A stretch of 64,000 bases of DNA from Escherichia coli (GCF_003334305.1 NZ_QOWS01000004.1), one strand, 5' to 3'. Counted from the stretch's first letter, positions 24,481 to 27,519 are shown. Numbers and translations: made by a program. The notes: a model not told the origin generated them from the sequence alone.

Positions 24481-24488
24481 GTAACCGT

Positions 24489-24568
24489 GCCGGATGCGGC
24501 GTGAACGCCTTATCCGGCCTACATAGTTCGTGCGACATGTAGGCCCGATAAGCGCAGCGCATCGGGCA
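24489..24568. repeat. Pair of inverted REP units (BIME) downstream of ascB
   Basis: gccggatgcggcgtgaacgccttatccggcctaca and tgtaggcccgataagcgcagcgcatcgggca. Confidence 0.85.
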
Positions 24569-24593: not shown

Positions 24594-25013
24594 TCAAAGA
24601 AACCATTCCGGCTTAACGCCAAATCGGGCTGAAAGTGCCTTAATGTGGGATATTGTCAGGGATCGTTGTCCAGACAAAATCTGACTGACCAGGGATTTAG
24701 AGCCGATTTCGTTCTTCAAATCCGCATAGGTCAGATTATGTTGATCAATCAACGTGCGAAGTAACGCCACGCCAACCGGCATTGCCGCAACGGCTTTGTC
24801 GAACTCTGCAAACTTTTCGTTGTTGTTTTCATACTCTGCAATGCGGCTCGCCAGAAAGTCGATAAGTGGATTGGTGTCATCTTCTTCAATCAAATATTCG
24901 ACCAGTTCCAGTGCTTCACGATAATCATCTTCTGAGTCACTGCCTCCCAGAAAGGGGACTGCATTGACCAGTTCTCTTGTTGCTTTAACAGCGCGTGCAG
25001 CATTAGCAGTCAT
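24594..25013 (-). CDS. HigA-family antitoxin-like HTH (Xre/Cro-type) protein, no adjacent toxin gene
   Basis: ORF track 24594..25079 (TTG start); ATG at 25011-25013 gives 140 aa MTANAARAVKATRELVNAVPFLGG...GSKSLVSQILSGQRSLTISHIKALSARFGVKPEWFL; by eye about half the residues match my recollection of E. coli HigA (YgjM). Confidence 0.7.
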   Translation of the reverse strand: MTANAARAVKATRELVNAVPFLGGSDSEDDYREALELVEYLIEEDDTNPLIDFLASRIAEYENNNEKFAEFDKAVAAMPVGVALLRTLIDQHNLTYADLKNEIGSKSLVSQILSGQRSLTISHIKALSARFGVKPEWFL

Positions 25014-25032
25014 TCTTTGTTCTCTCTGTAGT

Positions 25033-25055
25033 AACGTGACGTCTGTCTGCACGTA
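25033..25055. promoter_or_regulatory. Inverted repeat ACGTG-N11-CACGT upstream of the HigA-like gene (candidate autoregulatory operator)
   Basis: aacgtgacgtctgtctgcacgtaa between the ORF B stop and the HigA-like ATG. Confidence 0.35.
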
Positions 25056-25083
25056 ATCCCCCTCATAGCCACTCTGCAAAAAG

Positions 25084-25857
25084 TCAGTTCTGGTTCACCC
25101 CATAAAGCACATCCCCCTTTATCAAGCAACGCTGCGTCTGCGCCAGATCTTCCGTTTGCGGGTCGCGCCCGGCGATGGGTTTGAGGACGAGTTTACGGTT
25201 GGGGGTATAAGTAAAACGCGTGAGCGCGGGATAGCTTAACTTGCCAAACCAGCCGTGAACACGCTGCCATTTGGCGTCTTTTACCTGATACAGACTGGTT
25301 ATCCAGTAACCAGAATTAAACTGCATATCCAGCAATTGCGTGTGACCATTGCCTTGCAAATCCAGCAAATCATCTACGCCAGTTTTGCTTGCGGTGTAGA
25401 ATCCCCTGGGTTCAAAGACACAGGGACGGCCTTCGCGCGTGAACGTCATAAGAATTAAATGTGCATAAGGAGCCAGACCATTACCGGTACTTGGTAACCA
25501 GATAACCAGATCCTGAATGCCGTTACGATCAAGATCGGCGCGATAGAGTTGCCCTTTGCCCGCTATGTTTGCCAGCATACCCACAGGCACAGACCAGGAT
25601 TTACCGGCGCGATCTTTACCGTTCAATTGCCATTCACTATCATCATTTGGCATCTTTTCAAGCGTCACGCCAGCAACGCCCACTTTTCTAAAATGCCAGG
25701 TTTGCTCGGCATCATAAGGCATGGTCAGGAGAGGTTTCAGCGCCCGCTTTTGCGCGTATTCGCTGTCACTCATTGGCAGATATTCGGTAAAGCTGGTGGC
25801 CTGTGCAGGCAGCACTAAGCTCAATAAAAAAGCGCACATCCCTGTTCTGATATTCAT
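25084..25857 (-). CDS. Sec-exported protein of unknown function with two DxDxNG-like (FG-GAP/calcium-loop-like) motifs
   Basis: ORF track 257 aa; signal peptide MNIRTGMCAFLLSLVLPAQA|TS; motifs ADLDRNGIQDLVIW and DDLLDLQGNGHTQLL; ATG 24 nt downstream of hycI stop, same strand. Confidence 0.65.
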   Translation of the reverse strand: MNIRTGMCAFLLSLVLPAQATSFTEYLPMSDSEYAQKRALKPLLTMPYDAEQTWHFRKVGVAGVTLEKMPNDDSEWQLNGKDRAGKSWSVPVGMLANIAGKGQLYRADLDRNGIQDLVIWLPSTGNGLAPYAHLILMTFTREGRPCVFEPRGFYTASKTGVDDLLDLQGNGHTQLLDMQFNSGYWITSLYQVKDAKWQRVHGWFGKLSYPALTRFTYTPNRKLVLKPIAGRDPQTEDLAQTQRCLIKGDVLYGVNQN

Positions 25858-25881
25858 TTCGCTGAATTCCCTGATGGAGAA

Positions 25882-26352
25882 TTATTCTTCTTCCACCGCT
25901 AACTGCGCGAAGCCGCCATTCCCTTCCCAGCCTTCCAGTCGTTGATAAACGGTTTCAACCGCATCTTTAATCGGCTGGGTCATCGGGTAGTAAAAGCCGA
26001 CGATATCCGGCTGGATGCCGAGGAAAATCACTTCGCCAATATCTTCTTTCAACTGGTCGATAAGGTAGTTCAACGGCATGTTATGGGTAGTCATCATAAA
26101 CATCTCGGCGATATCATCCGGGTCGATGATGCGGATCTCGCCGGGGTTTAGCCCCATATCAGTGGCGTCGACAATCAGCAGTCGCGTAGGGCGCAGTTCA
26201 CGGATGGCGACGATGTCGTTTTCCGGTGCACTACCGCCGTCAATCACCACCCAGTTACCTTTCGGCGCGGCGGCGCACTTTTCCGCCAGCAGCGGGCCTG
26301 CGCCATCATCGCCCATCATGCTATTGCCAACACAGAGTAAAACGTCAGTCAC
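25882..26352 (-). CDS. hycI: Hydrogenase 3 large-subunit maturation endopeptidase HycI
   Basis: ORF track 156 aa [25 protein letters not shown]. Confidence 0.95.
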   Translation of the reverse strand: MTDVLLCVGNSMMGDDGAGPLLAEKCAAAPKGNWVVIDGGSAPENDIVAIRELRPTRLLIVDATDMGLNPGEIRIIDPDDIAEMFMMTTHNMPLNYLIDQLKEDIGEVIFLGIQPDIVGFYYPMTQPIKDAVETVYQRLEGWEGNGGFAQLAVEEE

Positions 26353-26755
26353 GCAGTCTCCTCACCATCAAATAGATGGCGTTTTCCTGATGAATATCAT
26401 GCAGCATACTTAGCAGCATTGTACTCCATTCCTGCTGCTGCGAAGTTTGCGCTGCCCGGGCTTTATCGAATGCGTTGGCCAGCATCGGCACATGGTTAAT
26501 GTCGATGACGATCTCACCATATTTCGGCACGCCTTCCATTTTGCGGCGGGCTTCGCTGCCCGCCTCCAGAGTGGCAATCCATGCCAGATATTCATCCCAC
26601 GGGCAGGTGAGCGCCGCTTCCAGGCAATCGATAACCCCAAGGTGGTGACCAATCGCCAGGCTGTAATAGACCACCTGCTGCGCCTCGGCGGGCGTGGCAT
26701 CGTTCTCATCAATAAATTTACGGCTCAGTTGACTGAACACCACCTTTTCACTCAT
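26345..26755 (-). CDS. hycH: Formate hydrogenlyase maturation protein HycH
   Basis: ORF track 136 aa [28 protein letters not shown]; operon position. Confidence 0.93.
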
Positions 26756-27519
26756 CGGATACGCGCCTCTTCTACAACATGATTCAGATGGCTGACAATC
26801 TCGTTCAGACGCGGATCGTTTTCCGCTTCCAGCCAGCGTGCAACCTGTTCTTCGCCCTGCCCTAACTGTGTCAGGAAGTCATCGGCAATCTGACGACCGT
26901 AACGATAACCTGCCAGGCGGCGTGCTTCGCGATCCACTTTCACACGCAGCGGCTGCACCATATCGCCATGCAGGATTTCCGCCGGTTGTTCATCCTGCTC
27001 ACCCGGGCCACGGGCGTGAATTTTCTGCTCCAGCAGGCCGAGCGCCATTGCAAAGCCGTACAGCGTGGCGGCAGGCGTTGGCGGGCAACCAGGGATGTAG
27101 ACATCTACCGGGACGATTTTATCCGTACCGCCCCACACGCAGTAGAGATCGTGGAAGATCCCGCCACTGTTACCGCAGGCACCGTAGGAGATACAGATTT
27201 TCGGGTCCGGCGCGGACTGCCACGCACGCAGCGCAGGGGATCGCATTGCACGGGTGACCGCGCCGGTAAACAGTAAAATATCCGCATGACGCGGTGAAGG
27301 AACGACTTTAATGCCGAAGCGTTCTGCATCAAACAGCGGCGAAAGCGTGGCGAAAATTTCGATTTCGCAGCCGTTGCAGCCGCCGCAGTCCACGCGGTAA
27401 ACGTAGGCAGAACGTTTGATTTTTTTCAGTAACGACGCCTTCATGCTGGCGATGGATTCATCCACCGTCATCGGGACCGGAATGCCGTTGGCGTCACGGG
27501 GGCCTAATAAATTGCTCAT
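26752..27519 (-). CDS. hycG: Hydrogenase 3 small subunit (NuoB-like)
   Basis: ORF track 255 aa; NuoB-type Cys motifs ([12 protein letters not shown]). Confidence 0.95.

Follow-up and report, generated by a model that had tools for sequence, protein, structure and literature searches.

The gene and its annotation

The DNA analysed here is a 64,000-nucleotide stretch of an Escherichia coli genome (GCF_003334305.1, NZ_QOWS01000004.1), hereafter the window. On its minus strand, an open reading frame (ORF) that starts with ATG and spans exactly positions 25084–25857 encodes a 257-residue exported protein of FG-GAP/VCBS-like type, which we call X; it lies between hycI, the hydrogenase 3 maturation protease gene, and an orphan higA antitoxin gene. 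Judged from the sequences of X and its relatives, three properties are well supported, namely export, calcium-loop repeats and a location at the end of the hyc operon. The explanation that best fits the data overall, which we favour tentatively, is that X is a Sec-exported periplasmic accessory protein, one of a family of small repeat proteins of FG-GAP/VCBS-like type that has yet to be characterised.

The coding sequence is supported by the ORF call, by RefSeq record WP_001026447.1, by orthologues, by about 245 family clusters and by a ratio of non-synonymous to synonymous substitution rates (dN/dS) of 0.17–0.54, which show X to be a genuine gene, conserved and maintained by purifying selection. 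An identical gene is present in strain H15, where RefSeq lists it as 'hypothetical protein' (WP_001026447.1), between hycI and a gene for an 'HTH domain-containing protein'. The start chosen in RefSeq differs by strain, being either M1 (257 residues) or M7 (251 residues), and the charged n-region described below is supplied by the M1 start only. Throughout the databases, X and its homologues are labelled 'hypothetical' or 'periplasmic or exported protein'. A Pfam scan of X gave no match, even at E ≤ 10, searches of NCBIfam, PADLOC and PHROGs matched no family, and a sequence search of the PDB with a 13-sequence profile of X found nothing; gene X is named in none of the papers that our literature searches found. 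An earlier sequence-only reading of the window had described an exported, uncharacterised protein that it could not place in a family, and the Pfam and NCBIfam results agree with this description: no profile assigned X to a well-known family devoid of calcium-loop repeats. Its coordinates for the gene and its placement of the two loops (Y105–W120 and V161–M178) also agree with the ORF and the residue numbering. Note that the AlphaFold DB entry A0A633HV03, a 343-residue 'Hydrogenase 3 maturation protease' from Salmonella, is probably a fused HycI–X call, as suggested by its length and a partial fold match.

Predicted signal peptide and export

The N-terminus of X, MNIRTGMCAFLLSLVLPAQA followed by TSF, has the features of a Sec signal peptide processed by signal peptidase I (SPase I; residues 1–20, positions 25798–25857 on the minus strand): an n-region whose single basic residue is R4, a hydrophobic stretch some ten residues long with Kyte-Doolittle values of 2.5–2.8 (h-region C8–L16), a proline at −4 and small residues at −3 and −1, provided by the A-x-A of A18-Q-A20. 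Cleavage is predicted between A20 and T21 and would release a mature protein of about 237 residues. Export as a lipoprotein or through the twin-arginine translocation (Tat) pathway was rejected by inspection, a lipobox and an RR motif being both absent. In a 74-member alignment of the family, 73 sequences are extended at the N-terminus, and 69 of these show a comparable hydrophobic segment immediately ahead of a conserved YLP motif, which marks export as a trait of the family. At the sequence level, the Sec signal peptide with an AXA site proposed by the sequence-only reading is thus confirmed. Through this predicted SPase I-type signal peptide, X would be targeted to the periplasm like the inhibitors PliI, X-Tfi and Tsi1.

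Calcium loops and predicted fold

X carries two tandem repeats of one type, each with a D-x-D-x-N/D-G-x-x-D/E loop between two β-strands. The profiles of blades B and C align loop on loop (hhalign P = 5.6e-5), and a third sequence repeat was not detected in X, the hhalign probability for blade A against blade B being 10%. Loop 1, D108-L-D-R-N-G-I-Q-D116 (25510–25536, minus strand), forms the core of region YRADLDRNGIQDLVIW (residues 105–120) and is a canonical FG-GAP-type Ca2+-binding loop, flanked by predicted strands 103–107 and 116–122. Its ligand positions are at least 93% conserved in the 74 homologues (D108 in 73, D110 in 71, N/D112 in 73, G113 in 69 and D116 in 73). Loop 2, D166-L-Q-G-N-G-H-T-Q174 (25336–25362, minus strand), forms the core of region VDDLLDLQGNGHTQLLDM (residues 161–178). 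Its register with loop 1, given by hhalign, reads D166-x-Q168-x-N170-G171-x-x-Q174, that is D-x-Q-x-N-G-x-x-Q and not D-x-D-x-N-G-x-x-D, while the family consensus at the same alignment columns is D-L-D-G-D-G-R-A-E. Loop 2 has lost two acidic ligands and, therefore, one canonical calcium site alone is certain in X. Of the two DxDxNG-type loops claimed by the sequence-only reading, the first thus stands as canonical, whereas the second survives only as a degenerate form in which Q168 and Q174 occupy the positions of acidic ligands.

A match to D-x-[DN]-x-[DN]-G-x-x-[DE] is expected by chance about 1e-3 times per 250-residue protein (a rough estimate based on typical amino acid frequencies and not on those of the present sequences), which, together with the conservation in the family, argues against a fortuitous match. 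The assignment of these loops to the FG-GAP/VCBS type is further upheld by the homologues and by profile comparisons. Among the 74 homologues, 27 match FG-GAP_3 (VCBS, Pfam) at E ≤ 0.1, including five at E ≤ 1e-3; eight match FG-GAP and one matches PliI (E 0.027). The blade 1 profile aligns with the crystallographic Ca2+ loops of integrin alpha-V (GDLDQDGFNDIAIAAPYGG; E ~1e-3) and with the FG-GAP propeller of TcdB2 (E 5e-3), and homologues in AlphaFold DB bear names such as 'Periplasmic or exported protein', 'VCBS repeat-containing protein' and 'FG-GAP repeat'. X shares with the FG-GAP/VCBS proteins (PF01839, PF13517; integrin alpha-V, TcB/TcdB2, PVL) the D-x-D-x-D/N-G-x-x-D hairpin loop between two β-strands, the hydrophobic strand residues that follow it, and tandem blade repeats. 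It differs from them in that it displays two recognisable repeats and a predicted fold of about three blades instead of a closed seven-blade propeller, scores below every Pfam threshold, including those of PF13517 and PF01839, is a small stand-alone exported protein, and has a second loop devoid of two acidic ligands. Judged from its motifs, X thus belongs to the FG-GAP/VCBS proteins without passing a Pfam threshold.

The AlphaFold2 model of X, built from the 74-sequence alignment, is all-β and of high confidence, with a predicted local distance difference test score (pLDDT) of 91.7 and a predicted template modelling score (pTM) of 0.87. Its strand pattern fits about three four-stranded sheets. 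The model suggests that X folds as about three four-stranded blades, with each calcium loop joining strands 1 and 2 of its own blade, and that the mature protein would be an open propeller-like domain. A Foldseek search with this model gave the PL11 lyases YesX and YesW as top PDB matches. In blade B, the loop that links strands 2 and 3 has a tip, G125-N-G-L-A-P130 (25468–25485, minus strand), which stands out on the conservation and polymorphism maps as a candidate contact loop: G127 and P130 are at least 90% conserved, and the flanking residues 121–124 and 131–133 are the most polymorphic of X. Finally, C146 and C244 co-occur, exclusively in the enterobacterial short forms, a pattern that amounts to a single evolutionary event and is compatible with a periplasmic C146–C244 disulfide.

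Position at the end of the hyc operon

Upstream of X lies hycI (25882–26352, minus strand; ORF and RefSeq annotation), which is the last hyc gene in K-12. X begins after a spacer of 24 nt that follows the stop codon of hycI (25858–25881, minus strand), and terminator and promoter prediction, together with inspection of the sequence, revealed no terminator-like or promoter-like site in this spacer. X directly follows hycI on the same strand in Escherichia (including E. albertii), Salmonella and Klebsiella spallanzanii. In Salmonella, the spacer is 26 nt (27 bp stop-to-start) and X is followed by hydN–hypF; in K. spallanzanii, a RelE/ParE-like gene and then ascB lie downstream of X. The short spacer, the common strand and the lack of a terminator after the preceding cistron are the hallmarks of operon membership, and the arrangement is kept in Salmonella; X is therefore probably transcribed with hyc (formate hydrogenlyase) as its final cistron and, as such, would be made under anaerobic, formate-induced conditions. 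The co-occurrence of X with hyc, which the sequence-only reading had singled out as worth profiling, thus holds as direct adjacency to hycI in all three genera. The conserved partner of X, as far as gene order tells, is hycI, which that reading had not weighed, and not the HTH gene.

The neighbourhood survey covered 12 GTDB loci, 76 metagenome loci and several exact-protein look-ups. In enterobacteria, the neighbours of X are hycI, then higBA, hydN or ascB; in distant homologues, NCBIfam scans of the likely operonic neighbours returned heterogeneous functions. A model in which X has a cognate effector was rejected on the grounds that the neighbouring families are heterogeneous and none recurs. 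A general link of the family with hydrogenases was likewise rejected, BLAST with hydrogenase and Hyp proteins having matched the Thiolinea locus alone. At this locus (Thiolinea disciformis, L012, 44–8909), a 326-residue homologue, 35% identical to X, is the last gene of a same-strand run that comprises, in order, genes for a histidine kinase and for hupU/hupV-like [NiFe] small and large subunits, then hypF, hypC, hypD, hypE and the X homologue.

The X–ascB stretch attracts mobile modules, as illustrated by higBA in E. coli strain E02, IS621 in E24377A and the RelE/ParE-like gene in K. spallanzanii. In E24377A, the IS621 transposase gene stands beside higA (L097, 1–766). In K. spallanzanii, the RelE/ParE-like toxin gene lies in the X–ascB stretch (L004, 7226–9400), with a 750-bp gap after hycI.

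The HigA-like neighbour

The gene downstream of X, higA (24594–25013, minus strand), encodes a 139-residue antitoxin that matches chain B of PDB 5IFG (E 2.5e-35) and is annotated in RefSeq as an HTH domain protein. Strain E02 displays the order hycI–X–higB–higA, and its HigB matches 5IFG chain A (E 7e-22). Compared to E02, the window has lost the higBA promoter and higB by a deletion whose junction lies at about 25039–25060, within the X–higA spacer (25014–25083, minus strand), so that the HigBA module is incomplete here: HigA is present and higB absent. As a consequence, expression of higA in this strain would depend on read-through from hyc and X.

The sequence-only reading had regarded the pairing of a periplasmic protein with an antitoxin-like regulator as unusual and had proposed to profile the co-occurrence of the two genes. 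In principle, X and the HTH gene could be the two members of one module, in which X would be either the toxin or a cargo under the control of the HigA-like regulator, since they are adjacent on the same strand, 70 bp apart, and X stands upstream of higA, where higB is found in higBA modules. This idea is effectively refuted: E02 has a full higB–higA between X and the downstream genes, of which the window is a deletion derivative, HigA is absent beside the X orthologues of Salmonella, where hydN takes its place, and of K. spallanzanii, where the RelE/ParE-like gene does, strains of sequence type 131 (ST131) retain higA with X reduced to a stump, and a cytoplasmic antitoxin would be unable to neutralise an exported protein. 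Because E02 retains higBA, higB is deleted here and HigA is absent beside X elsewhere, the X–HigA adjacency is accidental, the residue of an unrelated toxin–antitoxin insertion, and higA is not functionally tied to X. The position at the hyc tail, the recurrent loss and the fast-evolving loops are more informative about X than its pairing with HigA.

Presence, loss and polymorphism in E. coli

Taking a match that covers at least 80% of the gene as near full-length, we found X in 1463 of 5426 complete E. coli genomes (27%). About 840 further genomes keep the first 181 nt of X or less, and many truncated protein clusters exist. In K-12 MG1655, X is absent: the ascB–hycI spacer is 158 bp long, lacks higA and contains a scar of about 45 bp in which both ends of X, 3′ and 5′, survive (L017, 2519–2559, matching window positions 25084–25115 and 25836–25851). 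The presence of both ends indicates that X was lost in K-12 by an internal deletion of about 720 bp; the scar and the stumps together imply that X is ancestral at this locus and was lost several times. Note that, in B2/ST131-type strains, the first 181 nt of X are followed by higA and then by hydN instead of the asc operon; in ST131 strain EC958, the stump, joined to higA, is annotated as a 61-residue hypothetical protein (L099, 1497–1682). Database proteins of about 200 residues (P0042, P0044 and P0045) look like X-stump/HigA fusions.

The 17 distinct alleles of X are all in frame. X evolves faster than the genes upstream of it: dN/dS is 0.17–0.54 for X versus 0.01–0.07 for hycI, hycH and hycG; at intact loci, protein identity within E. 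coli is 80–100% for X and mostly 97–100% for HycI, HycH and HycG; and the synonymous substitution rate (dS) reaches 0.55 in X (25084–25857) versus at most 0.22 in hycI/H/G (25882–27519), dS being much higher in X in most comparisons, often more than two-fold. The high dS points to ancient allelic lineages or to recombination limited to X. Polymorphism clusters in surface loops 72–75, 121–124, 131–133, 140–142 and 149–152, whereas the core, the calcium loops, the GNGLAP tip, blade C and the cysteine pair are invariant among the 17 alleles. By these sequence measures, X is not decaying where it is kept.

The family beyond E. coli

A full HMMER scan of 1.84 billion representatives (E ≤ 1e-3) yielded 245 clusters (50% identity), the majority of which come from Acidobacteria of soils. 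The distant members recovered by a motif-based scan come mostly from metagenome-assembled genomes (MAGs) of Acidobacteria, and also from Thiolinea and from an Obscuribacterales MAG; AlphaFold DB adds members from Leminorella and Pseudomonas nitroreducens, and a profile-based word search found no new relative. Intact orthologues of X, 63–90% identical, are present in Escherichia, E. albertii, Salmonella and K. spallanzanii. A typical family member is 330–360 residues long and has an extra C-terminal domain of about 100 residues. Members from different phyla share residues W88, W185, Y190, W197 and R243 (family numbering).

Several members are of note for their context. In a Bryobacterales MAG (L006, 2004–4024), two tandem paralogues of 333 and 336 residues lie 9 bp apart. 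On a metagenome contig (L020, 1208–3230), a long-form homologue that is 52% identical to X (345 residues from an upstream start) follows menF and precedes, by 42 bp, a SUKH-1 (SMI1/KNR4) immunity-type gene, which is itself followed by a gene for a PEMT-like methyltransferase. Finally, a 1.6-kb contig of a 'Collinsella sp.' MAG (JAIJJM010000690.1, L002) carries an X allele whose product is 91% identical to the E. coli protein and which is almost certainly a binning contamination.

Comparison with known periplasmic inhibitors

XAC2610, PliI and Tsi1 are periplasmic inhibitors of peptidoglycan hydrolases that share an open propeller-like topology; the X-Tfi protein XAC2610 is stabilised by a Ca2+ loop (residues 151–159), which the inhibitory loop follows (PMC10933484). 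The blade 1 profile of X aligns with XAC2610 over 43 columns (E 0.17, chain residues 96–136) and, using estimated chain numbering, the matched stretch appears to include the Ca2+ loop of XAC2610, in coincidence with loop 1 of X. XAC2610 (PDB 4QTQ), which confers immunity against the lysozyme-like effector XAC2609 of the Xanthomonas type IV secretion system (T4SS), is a lipoprotein encoded beside its own effector, whereas X has neither a lipobox nor an effector neighbour in the genomes examined. PliI (PF16743, PDB 3OD9/4PJ2), an inhibitor of i-type lysozyme to which CarG and Tsi1 are structurally related, has about 120 residues versus 257 for X, and calcium loops are not reported for it in the sources used, unlike X. 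It aligns with X over 95 residues, i.e. under half of X, and this match was not recovered by Foldseek. X merely resembles XAC2610 and PliI.

Another point of comparison is provided by the orphan immunity-gene islets of Enterobacteriaceae, such as that of Salmonella Typhi with the XAC2610-like gene t0732 at the yegQ locus (PMC7400221). They show by example that enteric bacteria can retain exported XAC2610-like proteins in the absence of an effector, and X is likewise polymorphic in presence/absence and fast-evolving. They differ from X in that they lie at yegQ and not at hyc and form arrays, whereas X stands alone at the tail of a metabolic operon.

Possible roles of X

Among the roles that a Sec-exported periplasmic accessory protein of this family might play, that of a calcium-stabilised binding or inhibitor scaffold of the PliI/X-Tfi (XAC2610)/Tsi1 type, suggested by analogy, is possible rather than probable. 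According to this scheme, Ca2+ bound at D108–D116 would stabilise the scaffold, to which the C146–C244 disulfide may contribute in the enterobacterial forms, and an exposed loop would block an incoming cell-wall hydrolase. The candidate contact loop would be formed by residues 122–131, with the conserved GNGLAP tip and polymorphic flanks, a position deduced from the estimated XAC2610 numbering. X is a dispensable gene that was lost on several occasions, and the adjoining higA is what remains of an unrelated higBA module. The fast evolution of X, relative to the Hyc proteins, is of the kind typical of interaction proteins. Presence/absence polymorphism combined with deep allelic lineages is typical of proteins facing competitors, phages or hosts, and the 52%-identical homologue located 42 bp upstream of the SUKH-1 immunity-type gene may also count for an inhibitor role. 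A series of observations weighs against this interpretation. The similarity to XAC2610 is not significant (E 0.17–1.7, 8% identity), and the structural match scores to PliI/X-Tfi/Tsi1-type inhibitors are weak. Clustering of the neighbours across about 50 contexts of X homologues revealed no recurrent family, nor was any effector, hydrolase or type VI or type IV secretion system gene found to adjoin them. Several motifs (GNGLAP, GRP, GYWxTxLY and TRFT) are kept in members from different phyla, as would be expected of an enzyme, or of a protein that binds a conserved ligand, rather than of an immunity protein that evolves fast. The enterobacterial X proteins lack the C-terminal domain of about 100 residues present in most relatives, and loop 2 of X has Q in place of two acidic ligands. 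Full-length X is missing from 73% of E. coli genomes, its Shine-Dalgarno sequence, an AGGGA in the hycI–X spacer, is weak and distant, and our literature searches found no report on the expression, transcript, localisation or Ca2+ binding of X.

The cross-phylum conservation leads to another, rather unlikely, interpretation in which X is a Ca-dependent lectin-like glycan binder or an envelope-polysaccharide enzyme, whose FG-GAP blades would present the conserved aromatic residues and arginine (W88, W185, Y190, W197 and R243) to a periplasmic or cell-wall sugar, as in PVL or in the PL11 rhamnogalacturonan lyases. The ranking of YesX and YesW at the top of the Foldseek search is in line with it, as are the match of the blade profile to a related fungal 'Lectin 2' (4tqj) and the presence, next to some distant homologues, of genes for a GT2 glycosyltransferase, an aceric acid hydrolase, KdtA–LpxK and a BepA-like protease; however, X is predicted to have only about three blades, among which the sugar pockets that form between the blades of closed propellers are not apparent, its neighbours are heterogeneous with none recurring, and a catalytic motif was not recognised. 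The features that make X look reduced, i.e. the absent C-terminal domain, the degenerate loop 2 and the weak Shine-Dalgarno sequence, could also mean that it is a decaying relic with no function left in E. coli. X would then be the shortened, truncated version of an environmental protein family, stranded at the end of the hyc operon and heading for loss. The distribution of the gene (near full-length in 1463 of 5426 genomes, with some 840 stumps, the K-12 scar of about 45 bp and many truncated clusters) and the lack of a match in the S. enterica representative genome of the GTDB scan would fit; yet the frames are intact across Escherichia, E. albertii, Salmonella and Klebsiella at 63–90% identity, dN/dS is 0.17–0.54 and not close to 1, and the core, calcium loop 1 and the cysteine pair are invariant among the 17 alleles, which makes a relic improbable. 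The location of X raises in turn the idea of a periplasmic Ca-binding factor of [NiFe]-hydrogenase/formate hydrogenlyase, involved in metal (Ni/Ca) handling or acting on the periplasmic side of the membrane arm, which carrier strains would co-express with formate hydrogenlyase. X does lie directly after hycI in three genera, and the T. disciformis homologue, placed after hupUV-like genes and hypF–hypC–hypD–hypE, represents a second, independent linkage, with a chance of about 0.03 by a rough post hoc estimate. Nevertheless, hydrogenase or hyp genes are found near none of 47 other distant loci, and X is absent from K-12, whose formate hydrogenlyase is fully active, and from most E. coli strains; furthermore, catalysis and maturation of hydrogenase 3 are cytoplasmic, whereas X is predicted to be exported. 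We consider such a hydrogenase role very unlikely.

If X is made, roughly one in four E. coli strains (including many Shiga toxin-producing E. coli and commensals) and many Salmonella serovars carry a tenth, exported hyc product that is absent from K-12, and K-12-based accounts of the hyc locus are incomplete. The family of X, with its approximately 245 clusters of small exported VCBS/FG-GAP proteins, is widespread and has no characterised member; as the short enterobacterial form occurs in genetically tractable hosts, one experiment could assign a function family-wide. Were X to inhibit a cell-wall hydrolase, it would constitute an anaerobically induced envelope defence; were it to do nothing, it would clearly illustrate how a gene at the tail of an operon is lost time and again.

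Other features of the locus

Between ascB and higA, the window contains an inverted pair of repetitive extragenic palindromic (REP) sequences, i.e. a bacterial interspersed mosaic element (BIME), at 24487–24568, which explains about 180,000 megablast matches.

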